Source of the DNA: Deltaproteobacteria bacterium
Lineage (GTDB): Bacteria > Desulfobacterota > GWC2-55-46 > S146-73
DNA: 25,150 nt
Reading direction: 5' to 3'
NCBI GenBank assembly: GCA_015492355.1
Contig: WGFF01000222.1
Span: 1-25,150 of the forward strand
In this document: one piece after another, positions 15,990 to 25,150 of the stretch
How the letters are laid out: each line of letters begins with the position of its first letter
Numbering within the stretch: the first letter of the stretch is position 1
Position numbers and translations under genes: made by a program
The notes under the pieces: model-generated
Database searches by the model: none
What the model was told of the DNA's origin: nothing
The model's input: only the letters and a program-made list of their open reading frames with translations

Positions 15990-16088
15990 TTGAATTCGCG
16001 GTGAAGTATGGCTGATGCGATAGAGTGTATTTCATACTATATCAATGATTGCCGGTCCATCTTTCAGAAGAAAGGAGGTTTGATAGAG

Positions 16089-19000
16089 ATGATAAGGGAT
16101 AGAGAACCTGTTGGCATTATGTGTTTCATGTGGTTTTTGGTCGTTTCTTTTTTCTCAATTCTCATCTTTCTGCCGTACAGGGTGATGGCTAAAGAAGAGG
16201 TGGTAGTACATCCGCCTATACCACTTCTCGATGAGGATGGAGAGCATGTACTTACAAGTGGGCGTCCCTATTCATCGAGAAAAAGTTGTGGTAACAACGA
16301 GGGCAGTGGTTGCCACAACTATGACTCCATAACCCATGCCTATCACTTCGAGATGGGAAGGAACGAGGCAAGGGATTGGTTTGGAAAGGTACGCAAGCTA
16401 CCCCATCTCGTCTCTCCAGGCTATTTTGGTGGTTACGCCTGCATGGGAGGTAACAATCCAGAGGTACTCGCAAAGAAGGTCAATACAACCGAAGATAGGT
16501 TTGCGGATAGGGGTTCACCTGGATGGGTACTTCGTTGTAGTGGTTGTCACCCAGGTGGTGGATGGATGGAAAGGGATAGGGAAGGCATAAGGTACGACAG
16601 GAGAGACCCAACAACAATACCATACCTTGATGGTGACTACTACAACAGGGGTACAACAGATTCCAATGAACCAGCAGGGTCTGATGTTGTATCCCTGTGG
16701 GACTGGAGGAAAAGTGGCGTTGCAGAGGCAGATTGTCTTATGTGTCATGTGGATCTGAGCAGGCTCAAGAAGTTCGATCCACAACTTTTAGGTAGTGGTA
16801 CAAGCAGTGCCCTGGATCACTTCAGAACACTGAGGAGGACCTATCTTGCAGGGCAGGGTTTTTTCCGTTTTATGGGTACAGCCATACTGGAATTTATAAA
16901 CCTCAACACAACGGATGACAACTCAAAGGACGAGTCAGCTGTAACATTCAGACGTACCTTGAATGGAGAACACAATGTACATACCAGGACAAAACCCCTC
17001 TACAGCCTTGTACTGAACGATGACGGAGAGCCCATACTCGACTGGAATGAATCAGCCTTCGATGGAGATAGAAAGATAGCCATCCCTATGCTTCGTTTTC
17101 CCGATAATGATAACTGTATGCTGTGTCACAGAACAAGCCCTGGTAGAAGAGGGTTTTACGGCTTCGGAGATGATGCAGAACCTACCTATGACGAAGATGG
17201 CATCCTTATAGATGAAAACTACAAGTATGACATTCACAAGGGCAAACCCTGGACAGAGAACGGCGTTACAAAGAAGATAGACAACTGTAATGCTTGCCAT
17301 TCAAGGCTTTATTTCAGACCAACATGGCAGAGCACAGACCTTGATGCAGACCATAACATTCTCAAAGGAAACTCTGATATGGACTGTGCAAACTATCTCG
17401 ATTATAGACCCAATGCAAGATCGTGCGAGTACTGCCATAATGATGCACCAAATCCTGCCATCCCATCGGGTCATAGCGATATGCTCTCTGCCCATACTGA
17501 GAGATGGAGGGCAAAGGGGGACCTCAAGGGGTATCCAAAGGACTCACTCCCAAGGATAGTCAAGGCACATCTGGATTCCATCTCATGCCAGGCATGTCAT
17601 ATAACCGGCAAGAAGGACAGACGGGGTAAACCCATACAGATTATGTATCGCTACCGTATAGGTCCAAAGGGTGGGCTACAGATTATACCCTACAATCCCA
17701 GGATACGGTACTACTGGAAGGACAGAAACAGCGGATACATACTGAACAGGACAGAACGAAACAGTGTGTTCATGCTTGCAAGGGATGATGAGGGTAAAGA
17801 TATAGGTGTAATAGTGGATCCAGTAAGTGGAGAGTCCTTTGGTGTCAGTGTATCCGCAAGGATGTCTCACGGTTCGTGGCGTTTTGGTGAACCAGACAGT
17901 TACGAAGGATACATCGCCCTTAAAAAGGCATACGACAGACTCCTTATGAAAAAGGGTTTTAATAACCCCGATTGTGTAATGGTCTGGATAGAATCCAATG
18001 AATATGTGATGTCTCATAACACAAGGAGTGCCACTGCATCACTTCAGTGTGCGGATTGCCATAGTAAGAAGCAGGACGGCTCATTTAGTGCCATTCTCTC
18101 ACCAGATGGCCTCCTCGGGACAGGGAATGTCAAGACCGTTACTACCCTGCCCACAAAAAGACTCGTTGAGGAGGGCATAGTTGAACTCGGAATGCCGTAC
18201 ATGAAGATAGATGCGGATGGAGTGGTTACGGAGAATGTATCCGACATACTCTATGCAACAAAGATAAATCCGTCTCTGTCGATACTGAATTCAGCGGTGC
18301 TAAATACAATAGCCCTTCCACCAAGGCTCCTTACACAAACCGAGGCTTTATCAGAGGCTAATATACACGATCATGAGGATATGCAGATGGTAAAGAGCCT
18401 TCTTTCCACAGAAAAGATATTCATCTTCAGATCCAATTACGGTAGCGACGAGGTAAGAAAGGTTGTAATCCTTGCAAGTGCAGATACATACACAAGGTTG
18501 TTATTTCCAACCTATACCGCAGAGATATCACTCGCAGATGAGAGGATAGTTAAGGATCTATCCAATCTTGGTATAGGCAACGTGGTTGGTGATGTTTTTT
18601 CGATGAGGGCATTCAATGCCTCTGGAGAGGAGATTAGCAGTTTCCCCGGTGATGGAGTGGTTGTAAAGATACCTTACAGAGGAACCAGTATCAGCAAAGA
18701 AAGGATAAAGATAATAACATCGCAGGATGGGACAGACTGGAATCTACTTGATCCAGAAAGGATACTCTCCATAAGAGTGGGTGATAACGGAACAGAAGGT
18801 TATGTCCTCTTCCGTACCGAGCACTTCAGTTACTATGGCATTGTGGATACATCCAGGTACATATCAGGCAGTGACCTTGTAGACTCGGTGCAGACCAAGG
18901 AAGGTGGTTGCTTCATTGCAACTGCTGTATACGGCTCATACAGTGATCCCCATGTGAAGGTACTAAGGAAGTTCAGGGACAGGGTGCTTCTCTCTTTTGA

Positions 19001-19235
19001 TGTGGGTAGAAGACTCGTTGAATTTTACTATACCTATAGCCCTTCATTTGCCACATGGCTTAAGGATAGTACAGTTGTAAAGGGTCTTGTAAGAGGAGCA
19101 CTCCTACCGGTCTACTGGCTGGCATACTTCATGGTGGGGATTACCCTTACAGAGCAGATACTGATAGCCACACCTGTGATATCTGCCGGTGTGATCTATA
19201 TCGTCATGAGAAGAAGGTCTGAGAAGACCGCATAG
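16089..19235 (+). CDS. Large exported octaheme cytochrome c (octaheme tetrathionate reductase-like heme pattern) with beta-rich surface domain and CFI-box-CTERM
   Basis: Seven CxxCH (CSGCH, CLMCH, CMLCH, CNACH, CEYCH, CQACH, CADCH) plus CGNNEGSGCH (CX7CH). C-terminal GGCFIATAVYGS...VLRKFRD...YYxYSP followed by hydrophobic helices. AAAGGAGG at 16071-16078 favours ATG 16089 (track start 16008). Confidence 0.82.
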   Translation: MIRDREPVGIMCFMWFLVVSFFSILIFLPYRVMAKEEVVVHPPIPLLDEDGEHVLTSGRPYSSRKSCGNNEGSGCHNYDSITHAYHFEMGRNEARDWFGKVRKLPHLVSPGYFGGYACMGGNNPEVLAKKVNTTEDRFADRGSPGWVLRCSGCHPGGGWMERDREGIRYDRRDPTTIPYLDGDYYNRGTTDSNEPAGSDVVSLWDWRKSGVAEADCLMCHVDLSRLKKFDPQLLGSGTSSALDHFRTLRRTYLAGQGFFRFMGTAILEFINLNTTDDNSKDESAVTFRRTLNGEHNVHTRTKPLYSLVLNDDGEPILDWNESAFDGDRKIAIPMLRFPDNDNCMLCHRTSPGRRGFYGFGDDAEPTYDEDGILIDENYKYDIHKGKPWTENGVTKKIDNCNACHSRLYFRPTWQSTDLDADHNILKGNSDMDCANYLDYRPNARSCEYCHNDAPNPAIPSGHSDMLSAHTERWRAKGDLKGYPKDSLPRIVKAHLDSISCQACHITGKKDRRGKPIQIMYRYRIGPKGGLQIIPYNPRIRYYWKDRNSGYILNRTERNSVFMLARDDEGKDIGVIVDPVSGESFGVSVSARMSHGSWRFGEPDSYEGYIALKKAYDRLLMKKGFNNPDCVMVWIESNEYVMSHNTRSATASLQCADCHSKKQDGSFSAILSPDGLLGTGNVKTVTTLPTKRLVEEGIVELGMPYMKIDADGVVTENVSDILYATKINPSLSILNSAVLNTIALPPRLLTQTEALSEANIHDHEDMQMVKSLLSTEKIFIFRSNYGSDEVRKVVILASADTYTRLLFPTYTAEISLADERIVKDLSNLGIGNVVGDVFSMRAFNASGEEISSFPGDGVVVKIPYRGTSISKERIKIITSQDGTDWNLLDPERILSIRVGDNGTEGYVLFRTEHFSYYGIVDTSRYISGSDLVDSVQTKEGGCFIATAVYGSYSDPHVKVLRKFRDRVLLSFDVGRRLVEFYYTYSPSFATWLKDSTVVKGLVRGALLPVYWLAYFMVGITLTEQILIATPVISAGVIYIVMRRRSEKTA

Positions 19236-19242
19236 AATGGAT

Positions 19243-19279
19243 AAAAACGGGCAGGTACTGTTTTTATGCCTGCCCGTTT
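19243..19279. terminator. GC-rich stem-loop after the octaheme gene (terminator or processing/stability hairpin)
   Basis: aaacgggcagg (19245-19255) and cctgcccgttt (19269-19279) form a perfect 11-bp inverted repeat. The U-tract is better on the minus strand than on the plus strand. Confidence 0.55.
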
Positions 19280-19302
19280 CGTTCTTTCTCAAGGAGGTCT
19301 TT

Positions 19303-19530
19303 ATGGAGGGGATAAGGCAGAAGGGTTTTAAGATACTTGAGAGATTGATCCCATGGATCGCTGGAGGAGGGATGTCAGCAGGCAGTGGATTGTTTTCGAT
19401 CTACTGCACTGTCCCGAGAGCAGGCAGTTGTTCCTTCTGCGGGGGCTGTGCGGTTGCGATCTTTTCCCTTGCAGGATGGGCTATTCTCAAGGGTGGATTG
19501 ACCAGAAGGTGCTACAGAGAAGACAGGTGA
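19303..19530 (+). CDS. Small (75 aa) membrane protein with C-X7-C-X2-C-X2-C motif
   Basis: AAGGAGG at 19291-19297 precedes ATG 19303; two hydrophobic segments flank CTVPRAGSCSFCGGC; GTGA overlap with the porin start. Confidence 0.65.
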   Translation: MEGIRQKGFKILERLIPWIAGGGMSAGSGLFSIYCTVPRAGSCSFCGGCAVAIFSLAGWAILKGGLTRRCYREDR

Positions 19531-20759
19531 GATACGGTCTGGTATTTTTCTACACGGTGGTATTCTTTTTCTGGCTCTTAAGTGATGTGTACGCAGGTAC
19601 AGAGATAAGACTCGATACCCTCTTTATGATGGACAATCGTTTTTTTAAAAAGAGGGTGATAATAGAGGAATGGATAGATATTACATACACGAACAGGAGA
19701 AAGGATATATCAAGCAACTTAAGTGTTGCTGGAAGGCTATGTGAAGATGGATGGTATGACAGTATCTATAAATTGTATGTAGAAGGAGGTTTCAACCTTA
19801 TAGATACATCTATAAGGTTTGGAAGGTTCGAGCATATAGGTCCATCAGGCTATCTCATACTCGATGGTGCCTCAATAAAGACCACAATGGATGGTATCCA
19901 TGTGGAGTTCTATGGTGGCAGTACCAGAAGGATAGAGGACTACATAGAAGCAGTGGATACCAGATGGATAGGAGGAATCGATCTTTTCTTCTCAGGAAGG
20001 GAGAGATATATCCCAGTATGGCTCAATACTGTAGAAGGTAGGATAGGATATTACAGAATAGATCCATTCGATACAGGAGAGGATGGATTTACATGGAGCG
20101 GATTTATATCTGGTGGGAGGGACGATGAAGGTGGATGGTTTGTGGTGTCTGAAGGCAATGTTGTTGCAGAGGGTATGAGAGCCGAAAGGGTATCTATGGA
20201 ATTGGGGCTTTCTCTTTTTAAGAAGGGAGAGATAAGGACAATCTATGAGATGTACAACCCTGACTCTGGCTATCTCACCCTTCGGGATAGATTCTACCTC
20301 CGTTACACTAAGGGATACGAGAGGACCTACGGAGTGGACATACATTATCCATTGAAAAGCCTTACATTCTACTGGAAAGGAAGAAGGGGATTTCACGGTA
20401 TCGGTAAAGACGGATACTCTACCCTTGCTGGCTTGGAGAAGGGCTTACGGGATGGCATGCGTATGGGTGCTGAGGCAGTTTACATCAAGATGGAAGAGGA
20501 TACATCATTCAGTATGTTTACCAAGTCCAGGATACCACTTTCTGAGCGGAGTACCATCAAGGTGGATGGAATGTGGCAGTTACAGAGAAAAGAGACAACA
20601 GGCAAAAACATAGGTGCGGGATTTTATTCCACCCTCGAGATGATGTTACAGGGGGATATCTTTGTTTCCATATATGCCATGCATGTATGGAACGATAATC
20701 TGGATGACGAATACATGGCAGGTGTACGGGTTACGAAATTTTTGAACTATTCTTATTGA
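19527..20759 (+). CDS. Outer-membrane beta-barrel porin of a porin-cytochrome complex
   Basis: GTG 19527 gives a signal peptide ending DVYA. Amphipathic beta-strand pattern throughout, aromatic C-terminus (EYMAGVRVTKFLNYSY), RFGRF motif, and it lies immediately upstream of three multiheme cytochromes. Confidence 0.75.
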   Translation: MRYGLVFFYTVVFFFWLLSDVYAGTEIRLDTLFMMDNRFFKKRVIIEEWIDITYTNRRKDISSNLSVAGRLCEDGWYDSIYKLYVEGGFNLIDTSIRFGRFEHIGPSGYLILDGASIKTTMDGIHVEFYGGSTRRIEDYIEAVDTRWIGGIDLFFSGRERYIPVWLNTVEGRIGYYRIDPFDTGEDGFTWSGFISGGRDDEGGWFVVSEGNVVAEGMRAERVSMELGLSLFKKGEIRTIYEMYNPDSGYLTLRDRFYLRYTKGYERTYGVDIHYPLKSLTFYWKGRRGFHGIGKDGYSTLAGLEKGLRDGMRMGAEAVYIKMEEDTSFSMFTKSRIPLSERSTIKVDGMWQLQRKETTGKNIGAGFYSTLEMMLQGDIFVSIYAMHVWNDNLDDEYMAGVRVTKFLNYSY

Positions 20760-20763
20760 GACG

Positions 20764-21363
20764 ATGGGGATAAGGGTTTTACGGATAGTATCTATTATTG
20801 TATTCATCGTTTGTTTTCAAAGCCTTCATGCCATTGGTGAGGATAAAAAGGGAATATGGTGGAAGAAAAAAAGGGAAAGTCTTTATTTCCCGCACAATGT
20901 ACATTTCAGAATACTGAAGGATAGGGGGGATCCATGTATGAGGTGTCATCCCTTTCTTCCAAACCAGGTGAGAGAACCAGGGCTTATACGAGAGATAACA
21001 CGTATTGTTAACGAACCACTTAAAGGTATCTGTCACAGCTGTCATGTGGTAGACAGGACTGCCTCTTCTGAATGCACTATATGTCATTTGAATCCAGAGG
21101 CCATACGTCCAGAAGGTCATGGTAAGGATTATACCTATCTTCACGGATATGATGCACTGAAGGATAGACCCAGATGTAGTGATTGTCACGTAAACACTGG
21201 ATTCTGCACGGGGTGTCATTTCAGAAGGGATACGGCAAGAAAGGTACTCCATGGGATAGGCTATCGCAAAAGGCACGGTATAGACGCAAGACTATCCACT
21301 GGTAGATGCGCCAGGTGTCATAGCAATCCATTCTGCAATAGATGTCACACAGGTACAAGATAA
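20764..21363 (+). CDS. Periplasmic heptaheme cytochrome c
   Basis: Signal peptide ending LHA; FPHNVH; CMRCH, CHSCH, CTICH, CSDCH, CTGCH, CARCH, CNRCH in 199 aa. Confidence 0.9.
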   Translation: MGIRVLRIVSIIVFIVCFQSLHAIGEDKKGIWWKKKRESLYFPHNVHFRILKDRGDPCMRCHPFLPNQVREPGLIREITRIVNEPLKGICHSCHVVDRTASSECTICHLNPEAIRPEGHGKDYTYLHGYDALKDRPRCSDCHVNTGFCTGCHFRRDTARKVLHGIGYRKRHGIDARLSTGRCARCHSNPFCNRCHTGTR

Positions 21364-22310
21364 TACTCATAGCCACATTATTTCTGTTATGCATAGGATG
21401 TGGTGCTGGAACAGATGAAGAAAGACGTTCCAGTATATCATCCGTACAGTCCTCAAGCCTTTTACTTACCCCATCCCACACAGGCTGGGGACTTCGGGAC
21501 TGCAAGGCATGTCACCCTCTATCTGTTATACACAGGGATAGAGGGGTCATAAAGGATATGGTCTCTGTGAAGGGTTTCACAACGTGTATGGGCTGTCATG
21601 GCGATAACGGTACAGATGGAGAGAGAAGATGTACCGTGTGTCATAACAAAAATGACATGCCTCTTAAACCCTATCAACATGGTGGGCATGTACACGGCTT
21701 TAGTGGGGATAATGGTCTTGAGGATTCAGAATGTATCATCTGCCACGATTCATCCAACATGAATGGTGTGTTCACCCCTTACAATGACCTTACCATCTTT
21801 ATGGATGAACATGGCACCTACTCAGAGTATACCAGTATATTTGAGTTCTGCCTCAGATGCCACAACAGATATCATCAGCAACCTGGTTTTGAAATCACAG
21901 GATATGAGTACACTAACCCACTTGTTGCGATGGAGGATAATTACAGATTTATCGACAGGCATGGCACTGTGGATGGTACAGGCGATGGTATATACAGGGG
22001 GCTACGGGAAGGCTATGAATACGGAACCTCTCTTGAGTGTACAGAGTGCCATAATGTACACGGAACCACCAACCCGTTCCTCCTGATAGACAGTACGGTT
22101 GCTGGTGTGAGGGGCCTTGACAGCAGTATAAGACTCCGTCCATACAGTATCGAGATAGATGGAGGTAATCTGTCTCAGCTATGTGTCATCTGCCACAAGA
22201 TGGATACGGTTCTGGATGATGGTGACAGGGATACGGGTAACGGACTTTCAGGTGTTCATTATGTGGAGTCCGATTGCACGGACTGTCATACCCACGGGGC
22301 TGGCTTATGA
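21342..22310 (+). CDS. Octaheme cytochrome c lipoprotein
   Basis: Lipobox-like LLCIG-C at residue 20 followed by a Ser-rich linker; CKACH, CMGCH, CTVCH, CIICH, CLRCH, CTECH, CVICH, CTDCH. Confidence 0.88.
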   Translation: MSHRYKIILIATLFLLCIGCGAGTDEERRSSISSVQSSSLLLTPSHTGWGLRDCKACHPLSVIHRDRGVIKDMVSVKGFTTCMGCHGDNGTDGERRCTVCHNKNDMPLKPYQHGGHVHGFSGDNGLEDSECIICHDSSNMNGVFTPYNDLTIFMDEHGTYSEYTSIFEFCLRCHNRYHQQPGFEITGYEYTNPLVAMEDNYRFIDRHGTVDGTGDGIYRGLREGYEYGTSLECTECHNVHGTTNPFLLIDSTVAGVRGLDSSIRLRPYSIEIDGGNLSQLCVICHKMDTVLDDGDRDTGNGLSGVHYVESDCTDCHTHGAGL

Positions 22311-23191
22311 AGATTATACCTGCATATATTACGTTCTTTACCATGATGTCTCTTTTATCCTTTACATCCCTGTGTGTCGGAGAGGAGGGAACAATCCATC
22401 CCCATCCTGTAGATGTAACGATTCCAGACGATATGGATGTACCTGAAAATTTCCCTTTGGGAGAGAACAGGACACTTCTGTGTGATACGTGCCATGGTGT
22501 AAGAGGGCTTGAGAACATAAGGAAGGCTAAATTGGATTCAGATTCAAAAGACTTTCTCAGGGGTGGACCCTATGAGGACCTCAAGGAGTTCTGTTATAGA
22601 TGTCATATAAAGAGGTATTACAGAAAGAGGCCCTTTCACAGGATGATAGGAAAGGACGGACGTATTATCAAAGAGAGGTGCATTTACTGCCATGTGGATG
22701 TGCCTGAACCAAGGTCAGCACATACTACCCGGGATGTAAGATTTCGCCTGCCACCAGAGAAGTTATGTATCGGTTGTCATCTACTTTCGCCACATTTCAA
22801 TTCCATGAATCATCTGGTAGAACCATCTGAAAGTGTAAGGAAGGCTATAAAAGGCTCTGAAAGAAAATACAATGTGAAATTGCCACTCGACTCACAGGGA
22901 CGGATTATGTGTGCAACATGTCATACTCCACACCAAAAAGGTGTGCTGAAACCAGATAATCCATCTGCAACACAGGTTGCGGATACAGATATCGAAGAAG
23001 GTATCGTTTATGTGGAATCTCCCTGGAACAGTATCTTTATGGATGACAAGGGAAAAAGGTTCAAGGAATTCTCATCTAATACAGGTATATCTTTGAACAT
23101 CGAATACAAGGAGGTGAAAAAGGAGGTCCTTTTGAGACTTCCGGCAAAGGATGGCACCCTCTGTACTGCATGTCATACATTCAGGGAATAA
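22307..23191 (+). CDS. Periplasmic hexaheme cytochrome c (doubled-CxxCH type)
   Basis: ATG 22307 overlaps the upstream TGA and gives a signal peptide; CDTCH, CYRCH, CIYCH, CIGCH, CATCH, CTACH; MCATCHTPH...LLR...LCTACH pattern. Confidence 0.88.
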   Translation: MKIIPAYITFFTMMSLLSFTSLCVGEEGTIHPHPVDVTIPDDMDVPENFPLGENRTLLCDTCHGVRGLENIRKAKLDSDSKDFLRGGPYEDLKEFCYRCHIKRYYRKRPFHRMIGKDGRIIKERCIYCHVDVPEPRSAHTTRDVRFRLPPEKLCIGCHLLSPHFNSMNHLVEPSESVRKAIKGSERKYNVKLPLDSQGRIMCATCHTPHQKGVLKPDNPSATQVADTDIEEGIVYVESPWNSIFMDDKGKRFKEFSSNTGISLNIEYKEVKKEVLLRLPAKDGTLCTACHTFRE

Positions 23192-23194
23192 GCC

Positions 23195-25150
23195 ATGAAC
23201 ATACCAAAGTGGCAGAAGATACGTTACGGGCTTATAGGGTTATCCTGTGTACTCTTCTTTGCTCCACTTTCTTTTATACCTGGTCTATTCGGTAGCAGGG
23301 ATTTCTGCGGCATTCTGTGTATGAGGCGCTTTTATCTTTATTGGCCCGGTATGAGTGTAGAGGACCTCACCTTTCAGGTGATGGTATCCATAGGCGGTGT
23401 AATACTACTCTGTGTGATACTGGTTGTAACATTCCTTTTTGGACGCCTGTGGTGCGGGTATGTCTGTCCTGTAGGAGGTTTCCCTGAACTTGTGAGCCGT
23501 ATGCTCGGTGAAAGGATAAAGATAGATTACCGTGTGCTTCCGCAGGCTCCCATCAGGTACGGTTATCTCGGCTTTTATCTTGTAACGATGCCAGTGCTCG
23601 GGATAAGCGCATGCACACTGTGTAACTTTATTGTCCTTCCGCGTATTTTCGATGCATTAAGTGGGGGGAGGGAAGGTATCATGTATCTACTTACCTCTGT
23701 AGGTCTTACAAACCTTGCCCTTGTATTTCTTCTTGGTTTCTTTGCACACAAGGGAAGGGCATACTGTTCGTTTCTGTGTCCCATCGGTGCAATAGATGGC
23801 ATCGTTAACAGGATAGGCGCATCTTTCGGTTTTACAAGACGTATCCGTGTTTCCATGAGTAGATGCAATGGATGCGGAGTATGTGCAATCACCTGTATGT
23901 GTGGAGCGATAAGTATCCACAGAGACAAGGCTGTGGTGGATCAACTCTCGTGCATGTCCTGTCATGAATGTGTGGATGTGTGTGCTGCAGATGCAATAGA
24001 ATATCTTGTAATACCACCGGCTGGAAGAACACAGAGATCCCCCCGCTGTAGGGAGATAGAACCTGTATGGACAGGTGTATATAGCAAAACAGGCATAAAC
24101 GTAAAAAGGATATTCCTCATGTCCCTGACAGCAGTGGTTATTGCCTTCATATTCGTTACCCAGGTCTATGCAGGGAAGAGGAGAACCGATCCAGAAGGAT
24201 GCCTTACATGCCATGCTATCAAGGGGCTTCAATATATAGATAATAACGGACTTTTAAGAGATGCCACCATAGATGAATCCCACTACTATTCATCCATACA
24301 CGGAGGCATTCCTTGCAGGGATTGTCATGCCGGGATTGAACGCTTTCCCCATGATGCCAAAAAGGGAGGGGTGGATTGTGCGAACCGATGCCACATAAAC
24401 GAACCATCGAGCAACGCAAGATATTCACACAAGGATATAGTGGATGAATTCAAGGATTCCGTACACGGTAATGGTGCTACCAGCGGGTTTACCGGTAGAA
24501 ATCGCCTTGATGAGACCGTTTCACTTCTTCCATCATGTCGTAGATGTCACAGTAATACCCTGTATGTGGATGATAAGAGAATAGATGAGTTCAAAGAGGT
24601 TTTTAAAGACTGCGAGCGTGAATGTGGCAGATGCCACAGGGGAAGGGCATGGCGTTCACAATCGGCAGGACATATTATCAGAAGGCTTCTCGGTGCAAGA
24701 CGGACAAAGAAGGAAGAGATAGCACTATGTAACGGATGTCATGGCGATGTGGAGATGATGAAGGAGGTGGAACTCGAGGATAAAAAGACGGGAAAGAAAA
24801 AGAGAGCCGATGAGAGGTTTATCATGGCTGGTACAAGTTACTTACTTACCCTCCACGGGAGGCTCCTTGAAAGGAATAACCAGTACGGTACATCCTGTAT
24901 GGACTGTCACGCACCACAGGATTACAGGCACAGAATACTCCGCTCAGACAATCCCCTTTCATCGACCCACATAAAAAATCTCCCACACACCTGTGGTAGC
25001 GTATGTCATGACTATGCGGACATACCCCTCAACACCGCTTTTTTAACTACTGATATGCACCCACTGGATCTCACCCCCCTTGATACGAAGGATATATTTA
25101 GAGCCATGTGGAGAGAACCATCAGGATGGTTTGTATCTGTACTTATACTC
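23195..25150 (+). CDS. NapH/MauN-like 4Fe-4S membrane protein fused to a CbcL-like multiheme cytochrome c domain (3' partial; absent from ORF track)
   Basis: Manual translation: open from ATG 23195 for 652 codons to the window edge with no stop. Contains GRLWCGYVCP, RAYCSFLCP, CNGCGVCAITC and CMSCHECVDVC, a TM helix, then CLTCH, CRDCH, CANRCH, CRRCH, CGRCH, CNGCH, CMDCH, CGSVCH with S(I/V)HG spacers; a new hydrophobic stretch starts at the edge. Confidence 0.85.
   Translation, partial: MNIPKWQKIRYGLIGLSCVLFFAPLSFIPGLFGSRDFCGILCMRRFYLYWPGMSVEDLTFQVMVSIGGVILLCVILVVTFLFGRLWCGYVCPVGGFPELVSRMLGERIKIDYRVLPQAPIRYGYLGFYLVTMPVLGISACTLCNFIVLPRIFDALSGGREGIMYLLTSVGLTNLALVFLLGFFAHKGRAYCSFLCPIGAIDGIVNRIGASFGFTRRIRVSMSRCNGCGVCAITCMCGAISIHRDKAVVDQLSCMSCHECVDVCAADAIEYLVIPPAGRTQRSPRCREIEPVWTGVYSKTGINVKRIFLMSLTAVVIAFIFVTQVYAGKRRTDPEGCLTCHAIKGLQYIDNNGLLRDATIDESHYYSSIHGGIPCRDCHAGIERFPHDAKKGGVDCANRCHINEPSSNARYSHKDIVDEFKDSVHGNGATSGFTGRNRLDETVSLLPSCRRCHSNTLYVDDKRIDEFKEVFKDCERECGRCHRGRAWRSQSAGHIIRRLLGARRTKKEEIALCNGCHGDVEMMKEVELEDKKTGKKKRADERFIMAGTSYLLTLHGRLLERNNQYGTSCMDCHAPQDYRHRILRSDNPLSSTHIKNLPHTCGSVCHDYADIPLNTAFLTTDMHPLDLTPLDTKDIFRAMWREPSGWFVSVLIL

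Follow-up and report, generated by a model that had tools for sequence, protein, structure and literature searches.

An octaheme tetrathionate reductase-like cytochrome with a ZU5/GAIN-like domain and a CFI-box tail at the head of a putative porin-cytochrome operon

To our knowledge, the cytochromes of bacterial outer surfaces are lipoproteins or filament subunits, and the known octaheme tetrathionate reductases (OTRs) are soluble periplasmic enzymes whose physiological role is uncertain. We describe here a gene whose product joins an OTR-superfamily cytochrome to a ZU5/GAIN-type domain and a CFI-box tail; each of these kinds of part is already known, and what is new is their combination. The gene occupies positions 16089-19235 of the forward strand of a 25,150-nucleotide stretch of a deltaproteobacterial genome (contig WGFF01000222.1, assembly GCA_015492355.1; hereafter the window), encodes 1048 residues (P0001) and is the first of a conserved seven-gene module. 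The order of its parts is signal peptide, OTR-like octaheme domain, ZU5/GAIN-like domain, linker, CFI-box-CTERM, transmembrane (TM) helix and RRR. On balance, and with only modest confidence, we favor the view that the product is a Sec-exported OTR-like enzyme with a ZU5/GAIN joint and a CFI-box anchor, that is, a tethered outer redox catalyst heading a conduit operon.

The described system nearest to the heme domain is OTR itself, typified by Shewanella oneidensis SO_4144 (1SP3, TIGR04315). Eight heme motifs and a conserved Lys ligand of heme 2 characterize all OTRs (PMC10153276); in the S. oneidensis enzyme the ligand is Lys56, situated 18 residues before the first Cys of the heme-2 motif C74xxC77H78 (PMC3769277). 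The present family is like OTR in its eight heme sites, their order and its heme-2 signature, and both have a conserved Lys ~18-20 residues upstream of heme 2. Unlike OTR, it has ~270 aa of insertions, a variable CX2-8CH motif for heme 1, an invariant Cys118, a ZU5-like domain, a membrane tail and a putative conduit operon. MmcA of Methanosarcina (TIGR04314) is likewise an OTR-superfamily cytochrome recruited to membrane-associated electron transfer, and it is matched weakly by the same profiles and by a fold search of the AlphaFold Database (AFDB). MmcA has seven hemes, having lost heme 2 and the Lys (PMC10153276), whereas the family described here keeps both and adds the ZU5-like domain and the tail.

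The attached parts also have described counterparts. The autoproteolytic domains of NLRP1, CARD8, PIDD, UNC5, adhesion G-protein-coupled receptors (GPCRs) and Nup98 have the same fold (Z 7-10), with an H-[FL]-[ST] turn before the last beta-strand, and in adhesion GPCRs a membrane-anchoring segment directly follows the domain, as it does here. Unlike the eukaryotic ZU5, FIIND and GAIN domains, the present one is bacterial, periplasmic or extracellular, attached to a redox enzyme and without a match at the sequence level, and its cleavage is putative. In bacteria, ZU5 autopeptidases have up to now been predicted in toxins and in surface proteins of the hydrolase and adhesin kinds (PMC3482391). 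With regard to the tail, exported proteins of the GlyGly/rhombosortase and MYXO/JDVT/myxosortase systems (e.g., VesB of V. cholerae; Haft 2023 preprint) end, like this one, in a signature motif with a TM helix and Arg cluster; the CFI box differs in having a folded helical module of ~65 aa between the Cys motif and the TM helix. Finally, the operon resembles MtrCAB-type conduits in combining a putative outer membrane barrel, periplasmic multihemes and a large exported cytochrome that would need the type II secretion system (T2SS). It differs from them in that homology to MtrA, MtrB or MtrC is limited to generic heme motifs, the presumed outer cytochrome is OTR-like and probably has a catalytic heme, and the inner module is a NapH-like polyferredoxin-cytochrome fusion.

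The heme domain (aa ~38-735; 16200-18293) was compared with known proteins through a heme-free AlphaFold2 (AF2) model of aa 30-740 made from 86 homologues, which is confident (predicted local distance difference test, pLDDT, 87.7; predicted TM-score, pTM, 0.88). In Foldseek, no PDB entry other than the Shewanella OTR structure 1SP3 (E 2.5e-4, probability 0.99) matches at E<=0.001, and VIA-align gives 1sp3_A a Z of 8.0 over 316 of 436 residues, with the next match at Z 3.8. Among the AFDB clusters, members of the protein's own family rank highest; multiheme cytochromes without a name follow in a graded series, and MmcA and "Octaheme tetrathionate reductase" come after these; the fold search of AFDB Swiss-Prot gave no match. 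For profile comparison, bona fide OTR-family genes (TIGR04315 480-641 bits) were taken from genomes of the same phylum. Local hhalign gives 95.3% probability (E 2.4e-8) over hemes 4-8, the global alignment (98.7%, E 2e-15) brings all eight heme sites into register, and the heme-2 signature R-C-x-x-C-H-x-G-x-G-W is common to the family and OTR. A first-pass annotation, made from the sequence alone, had proposed an OTR-like enzyme, and the proposal holds up: two aligners return 1SP3 as the sole significant PDB fold match rather than an unrelated fold, the heme sites agree in register and the Lys position is conserved. The heme domain is thus a distant relative of OTR and constitutes a distinct family within the OTR/MmcA superfamily.

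Two narrower assignments were rejected. One is the OTR family proper: the TIGR04315 score of 24.8 bits is far below the cut-off (375), the protein has 2.4 times the length of OTR, and the position of OTR Cys64 is not conserved. The other is MtrC/OmcA membership, as the Pfam match to MtrC/MtrF II-IV is marginal and local (33.4 bits, cut-off 30) and no MtrC-type structure occurs among the fold matches. As a separate observation, a wider set of multiheme proteins of 600-1450 aa (P0164-P0203 and others) matches only the first ~200 residues of the family (E 1e-45 to 1e-29), a part that holds hemes 1-3 and the Lys region. This set, in which weak matches to TIGR04315 and TIGR04314 recur, represents an unexplored OTR-like superfamily.

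Seven of the heme sites are CxxCH motifs, identified by motif and by hhalign (for heme 2 also by the family alignment): heme-2 CSGCH, followed by GGGW (16536-16550), heme-3 CLMCH (16734-16748), heme-4 CMLCH (17115-17129), heme-5 CNACH (17286-17300), heme-6 CEYCH (17424-17438), heme-7 CQACH (17586-17600) and heme-8 CADCH (18048-18062). The remaining site is a non-canonical CX7CH, C67...C75-H76 (16287-16316), which aligns with heme 1 of OTR; the octaheme count of the first-pass annotation is right only if this site is included, the CxxCH motifs proper numbering seven. Among 130 full-length relatives the C, C and H of heme 1 are invariant and are separated by a Gly-rich spacer of variable length, with n = 2, the canonical CxxCH, in 14 sequences, 3 in 8, 4 in 94, 5 in 3, 6 in 1, 7 in 8 and 8 in 1. 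The nine relatives with n = 7-8 comprise all seven CFI-tailed members and two tail-less ones. The 2.07-Mb source genome has four genes of the CcsA/CcmC type (PF01578; 260-315 aa; contigs C341, C291, C265 and C136), and such a set of cytochrome c synthase paralogues could, as in Wolinella, handle non-canonical heme motifs.

Two invariant residues outside the heme motifs are of particular interest. Lys130 (16476-16478) precedes the heme-2 Cys by 20 aa in 110 of the 130 sequences and by 21 aa in another 16. hhalign sets the "LGK" of OTR on the "LAKK" of the family, so that Lys130 falls within one residue of the OTR Lys; in the fetched OTR genes, K is at 56 in L-G-K and C at 64 in N-N-F-C. Conservation, spacing and alignment make Lys130 a candidate axial ligand of heme 2, equivalent to OTR Lys56, in a model that itself carries no heme. 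The second residue, Cys118 (16440-16442), stands in a GGY-x-C-M-GG motif 12 residues before Lys130. No other Cys outside the heme motifs is invariant, and the segment containing Cys118 is absent from OTR; the residue is a candidate active-site or ligand residue. The hallmark of the catalytic heme, a Lys at heme 2, thus appears to be retained, and the presence of eight hemes in OTR order together with a Lys positioned for heme 2 therefore points to a substrate-accessible catalytic heme and not to a pure wire. The active heme is probably of OTR type, in a pocket that differs from that of OTR.

A side observation concerns Cys64 in true OTRs. Three OTR genes from other genomes (L009, L014 and L015, in G010, G089 and G139; TIGR04315 590-619 bits) each have one in-frame TGA at the Cys64 position, in the context N-[NS]-F-U-I, 10 residues before the heme-2 CxxCH; the flag "1 TGA" is borne by 7 of the 19 above-cut-off TIGR04315 matches in genomes of the same phylum. 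These genes probably encode selenocysteine OTRs. The TGA falls exactly at Cys64, and true OTRs therefore probably have a catalytic Cys or selenocysteine there.

The region after the hemes also has a structural affiliation. An AF2 model of aa 715-1048, made from 49 homologues (pLDDT 88.3), contains a single domain at residues ~735-926 (18291-18866), composed of an alpha/beta part plus a beta-sandwich. The earlier description of this stretch as ~250 aa of beta-rich sequence is accurate as to length (~254 aa from the last heme to HFS) but not as to composition, which is alpha/beta plus beta and not purely beta. The leading Foldseek matches in the PDB are the rNLRP1 FIIND (E 5.9e-4), the BAI2 GAIN domain (2e-3) and the ankyrin-B ZU5 tandem (3e-3), all with probability 0.99-1.00, followed by CD97, CELSR1, BAI3 and UNC5b. 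By VIA-align, the top 15 matches are all ZU5, FIIND or GAIN domains or axonemal doublet-microtubule chains (Z 6.1-10.1; model residues ~21-212). Ankyrin ZU5 domains score Z 10.1, 9.8 and 9.5, the CARD8 FIIND 8.6, the CD97 GAIN 8.3, the NLRP1 FIIND 7.8, CELSR1 7.3, UNC5b 7.1 and BAI3 6.8; several further GAIN domains are matched, and the Nup98 autoproteolytic domain gives 4.0.

The HFS triplet, H912-F913-S914 (18822-18830; model residues 198-200), occupies the turn that leads from the penultimate strand into the last one. Where the matched chain ends at a cleavage site, the alignment breaks off at model residue 199, which is Phe913. In particular, Phe913 aligns with residue 1212, the end of the human NLRP1 chain (range 1090-1212), and a GPR56 chain ending at 382 gives the same register, presumably with respect to its cleavage site. 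H-F-S is the triad of PIDD, UNC5CL and Nup98. NLRP1 is cleaved between F1212 and S1213 (PMC9700037), and Zhang et al. (2012) placed ZU5, GPS and Nup98 in one autopeptidase superfamily and predicted autoprocessing for ZU5 domains of bacterial surface proteins (PMC3482391). Within the family, H-x-S/T occurs in 100 of the 112 relatives that bear a tail, and all 18 without a tail lack it. The earlier suggestion of a GPS/ZU5-type site is thus borne out as far as fold and the register of the Phe with the NLRP1 P1 residue are concerned, and the structural model makes self-cleavage at HF/S a plausible and well-founded hypothesis.

The C terminus carries a CFI-box-CTERM domain (aa 941-1008; 18909-19112), helical in the AF2 model and beginning GGCFIATA. 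In the hidden Markov model (HMM) search, NF041770 matched it over 68 of 69 profile positions with 87.4 to 92.8 bits against a cut-off of 40, as the first-pass annotation had anticipated. The Cys motif and the TM helix are separated by ~65 aa. We found no paper on CFI-box-CTERM in a literature search. The CFI box exceeds its cut-off in 49 of 151 genomes of the phylum, at 1 to 22 copies each, and the proteins bearing it are alike in layout: a G-rich linker, CFIATAA, ~65 aa, a TM helix and a basic tail. In the sample inspected, the cargo includes beta-helix, PKD and He_PIG Ig domains, GDSL lipases, M6 and S8 peptidases, and Kelch/BNR repeats, all of which is exported-type cargo, typically extracellular or surface-associated to judge by its domains. 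The nature of the cargo, the TM helix with its basic tail and the swapping of tails described below are the grounds for regarding the CFI box as a putative sorting or anchoring signal.

The source genome has only one other CFI-box protein, an M6 metallopeptidase that resembles immune inhibitor A and carries an InlB B-repeat domain (L001 28-1806, contig C349); neither a ZU5-like domain nor HFS precedes its CFI box. The idea that the ZU5-HFS arrangement is a general companion of the CFI box was rejected, the arrangement being present in 1 of 14 sampled proteins (13 from other genomes and the source genome's second). In a non-cytochrome with an open frame of 1062 aa (L022, G144:C60), W-Y-N-P-S-T-G-Q-W...V-N-H-F-S-I-F-G-L lies ~37 residues before the CFI box; after the present protein, this is the second in which a CFI box comes straight after a ZU5-type HFS strand.

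The family as a whole exhibits natural tail swapping. At least 288 homologue clusters (90% identity) were found at E<=0.001, and because these have the same motif set it is not a chance pattern; clustering at 50% identity gives 74 representatives at E<=1e-30, many being only pieces of members of the family. The named sources are Deltaproteobacteria metagenome-assembled genomes (MAGs), the Gammaproteobacteria Sedimenticola, Thiodiazotropha, Halobeggiatoa and the Seepiophila symbiont, and vent metagenomes. In the survey of tails that the earlier annotation had called for, 7 of the 130 full-length members have a CFI box, 105 have a short tail (G-rich, TM, basic) and 18, which are basal, have none. 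An NCBIfam scan of 49 C-terminal regions (E<=1) identified nine GlyGly-CTERM, ten MYXO-CTERM, four SVAGG and one JDVT-CTERM (1.6e-10), and the GlyGly, MYXO and JDVT-type tails are at the same position as the CFI box here.

Sorting machinery varies in parallel. A gammaproteobacterial MAG with a GlyGly-tailed orthologue has a rhombosortase (158.6 bits, cut-off 84); the source genome (85% complete) has none above that cut-off, its best match being a generic rhomboid at 32 bits, and TIGR03501 (GlyGly-CTERM) finds no match in the tail of this protein. On this sequence evidence, tail type follows the sorting machinery of the host. GlyGly-CTERM and MYXO-CTERM cargo is processed and needs the T2SS to reach the surface (Haft preprint 10.1101/2023.06.07.544157), and the source genome encodes a GspD secretin (544 bits, cut-off 351). 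A literature search found nothing on GlyGly-CTERM in conjunction with multiheme proteins.

The gene's surroundings suggest a role in electron transfer across the envelope. The conserved operon (19237-25150, running past the end of the window) was delimited by Pfam matches, heme counts and synteny. Gene order in the module is kept in a deltaproteobacterial MAG (L003, CFI tail) and a gammaproteobacterial MAG (L005, GlyGly tail), with 27-56% identity per gene. Gene 2 encodes a small protein, 97 aa here and 78-97 aa across the operons. It is followed by a ~420-aa putative outer membrane beta-barrel protein that belongs to no Pfam family and ends in an aromatic residue; its nearest Atlas clusters (feature similarity 0.97-0.98) are unnamed save for one "Beta-barrel porin 2 family protein", and it showed no homology to MtrB or other known conduit porins. 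Cytochromes with seven, eight and six hemes come next, and the last gene in the window, which runs off its end, encodes a NapH-like Fer4_5 polyferredoxin fused to a multiheme domain (Pfam). In relatives the operon continues with an NHL-repeat multiheme protein, which would be beyond the window here. We found no description of this operon in the literature; the clusters of D. ferrophilus, Tenderiales (Uet) and SEEP-SRB1 are different. Barrel, multihemes and exported cytochrome, together with their synteny, mark the operon as a putative porin-cytochrome extracellular conduit.

Taken together, the protein is probably a tethered, possibly releasable, outer redox catalyst, with surface display and catalysis predicted from its sequence. 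The earlier idea of a terminal catalyst displayed on or released from the envelope fits the locus: tails are swapped among relatives, gene order is conserved, a GspD secretin is encoded, and CFI boxes occur on exported-type cargo. According to this scheme, the protein would be exported by Sec and acquire its hemes in the periplasm, while the C-terminal TM helix would hold the chain at the inner membrane. The ZU5-like domain would then fold and self-cleave at HF/S by an N-to-O acyl shift, leaving the cytochrome held non-covalently by the last beta-strand. That strand would run through the linker into the CFI-box module, the TM helix and the Arg cluster, which would be the part that stays in, or is processed at, the membrane; the CFI-box module would be processed or retained by a partner. 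Transfer of the protein to the cell surface would be T2SS-dependent. At the surface, the OTR-like domain would take or give electrons via the barrel-cytochrome module and turn over an extracellular or envelope substrate at the Lys-ligated heme. We infer the Lys130 ligation and the self-cleavage, and likewise the surface location, the direction of electron flow and the substrate.

Several observations weigh against this proposal. In the heme domain, the TM-scores to 1SP3 are low (0.19/0.29), which is because of the ~270 aa of insertions; PDB sequence searches with the protein and with the family profiles gave no match; the 24.8-bit match to TIGR04315 is partial, covering profile positions 142-241; and the position equivalent to Cys64 (aa 139) is variable, being A, G, N, K, L, M or S. 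In the attached domain, the best structural matches are to ankyrin ZU5 domains, which do not self-cleave, and Pfam ZU5 and GPS are not detected in aa 735-925 at E<=10 or among the 49 relatives. H-x-S has been lost at least six times in tail-bearing lineages, and the association between tail and H-x-S is suggestive only, for on the heme-domain tree tail presence changes 2 times and H-x-S 8 times, and with two independent tail changes no significance can be claimed. At the C terminus, the TM helix and RRR could be a simple inner-membrane anchor for a protein facing the periplasm.

The ankyrin matches bear on one alternative, namely that the ZU5-like domain is a non-cleaving structural or binding module, as in ankyrin or ZO-1, in a single covalent chain where HFS is kept for folding or interaction. 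We regard this as quite possible, although not as the expected outcome. It accounts for the top structural scores going to non-cleaving domains, for the want of a ZU5 or GPS match at the sequence level, and for the dispensability of H-x-S in 12 of the 112 tail-bearing relatives, where KFA, QFG, QLG and other triplets replace it. It does not readily explain why H-[FL]-[ST] occurs in the other 100 and in none of the tail-less members, or why HFS sits in the scissile turn of NLRP1 with its P1 residue in register; the autopeptidase superfamily of ZU5, GPS and Nup98, and the autoprocessing predicted for bacterial ZU5 domains (PMC3482391), also argue against it. A further-reaching reading, a surface redox enzyme held on the cell by a GAIN-like self-cleaved joint, is one that we put forward tentatively and would not count on. 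In it, the octaheme catalyst would be docked on one beta-strand, membrane- or lipid-anchored via interchangeable tails, and sheddable or exchangeable; shedding can be imagined, for example, by force when the catalyst is bound to a mineral, a sulfur particle or a partner cell.

The main rival to a surface location is a periplasm-facing enzyme anchored in the inner membrane, for which the TM helix and RRR are a permanent anchor and which never moves to the surface. Its substrate, a soluble N- or S-oxyanion, would come in through the neighboring barrel, and the electrons would come from the NapH-like quinol-side subunit. OTR itself is periplasmic (PMC10153276), the positive-inside topology has RRR on the cytoplasmic and the cargo on the periplasmic side, and a processing enzyme for the CFI box has yet to be named. 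Nevertheless, GlyGly/MYXO/JDVT-type tails at this same position are removed and their cargo is exported by the T2SS, CFI-box cargo consists of typical extracellular enzymes and adhesin-type proteins, and the three other exported multihemes and the barrel have the layout of a porin-cytochrome conduit, which needs an outer partner. We therefore consider a permanent inner-membrane anchor unlikely. We also think it improbable that the protein is a non-catalytic outer electron-transfer cytochrome, an analogue of MtrC, OmcA or MmcA serving minerals, electrodes or partner cells, because the weak Pfam match to MtrC/MtrF II-IV, the conduit-type operon and the precedent of MmcA, which shows that OTR relatives can turn into electron conduits, are set against the loss from MmcA of the heme-2 motif and Lys (PMC10153276), both invariant here, and against fold matches that include no MtrC or OmcA structure.

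If the protein is indeed a tethered outer redox catalyst, there would be extracellular or envelope catalysis, and not mere electron hopping, at the end of a conduit, as well as a new way of tethering and releasing a redox protein and a physiological context for the OTR superfamily. The operon is conserved from Desulfobacterota-type MAGs to sulfur-oxidizing Gammaproteobacteria (Thiodiazotropha, Sedimenticola, relatives of Beggiatoa and tubeworm symbionts), and the type of domain that attaches the catalyst self-cleaves in eukaryotic receptors and inflammasome sensors. One orthologous cargo occurs naturally with a CFI box, with GlyGly-CTERM or with no tail, and the function of the CFI box is therefore directly testable. 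Should the GAIN-like joint prove to be real, it would be a bacterial counterpart of adhesion-GPCR mechanics in extracellular respiration and would provide the first functional context for the unstudied CFI box.

The remaining features of the gene are as follows. The open frame spans 16008-19235, and ATG 16089, the start chosen earlier, is the right one: a strong ribosome-binding site (AAAGGAGGT) stands at 9-nt spacing, the N-termini of homologues agree, and an upstream-extended start at 16008 is unnecessary. The first 34 residues (16089-16190) form a Sec-type signal peptide, with equivalent N-termini in homologues; a hydrophobic stretch at aa 10-28 is followed by VMA/KEE, and cleavage is predicted after V-M-A, before KEE. 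The seven CxxCH motifs, the HFS triplet and the CFI Cys codon at 18909 all lie where the first-pass annotation had put them. Between the ZU5/GAIN-like domain and the CFI box there is a Ser/Gly-rich linker (aa 927-940; 18867-18908), modeled at low confidence (pLDDT <50, model residues 214-226). More than one TM helix had been noted at the C terminus; the hydropathy scan identifies one clear helix (aa ~1022-1040, followed by RRR 1041-1043; 19152-19217), and the second helix, preceding it, is less hydrophobic.

Two of the neighboring genes have features of their own. The 97-aa open reading frame (19237-19530), which overlaps the start of the barrel gene, is 44-46% identical over its C-terminal ~60 aa in both compared operons, belongs to no Pfam family and has a C-S-F-C-G-G-C motif in a hydrophobic segment. 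Further downstream, the 322-aa octaheme cytochrome (21342-22310) has a lipoprotein-like N-terminus, L-L-C-I-G-C-G, and the operon may thus encode a second membrane-tethered outer cytochrome.

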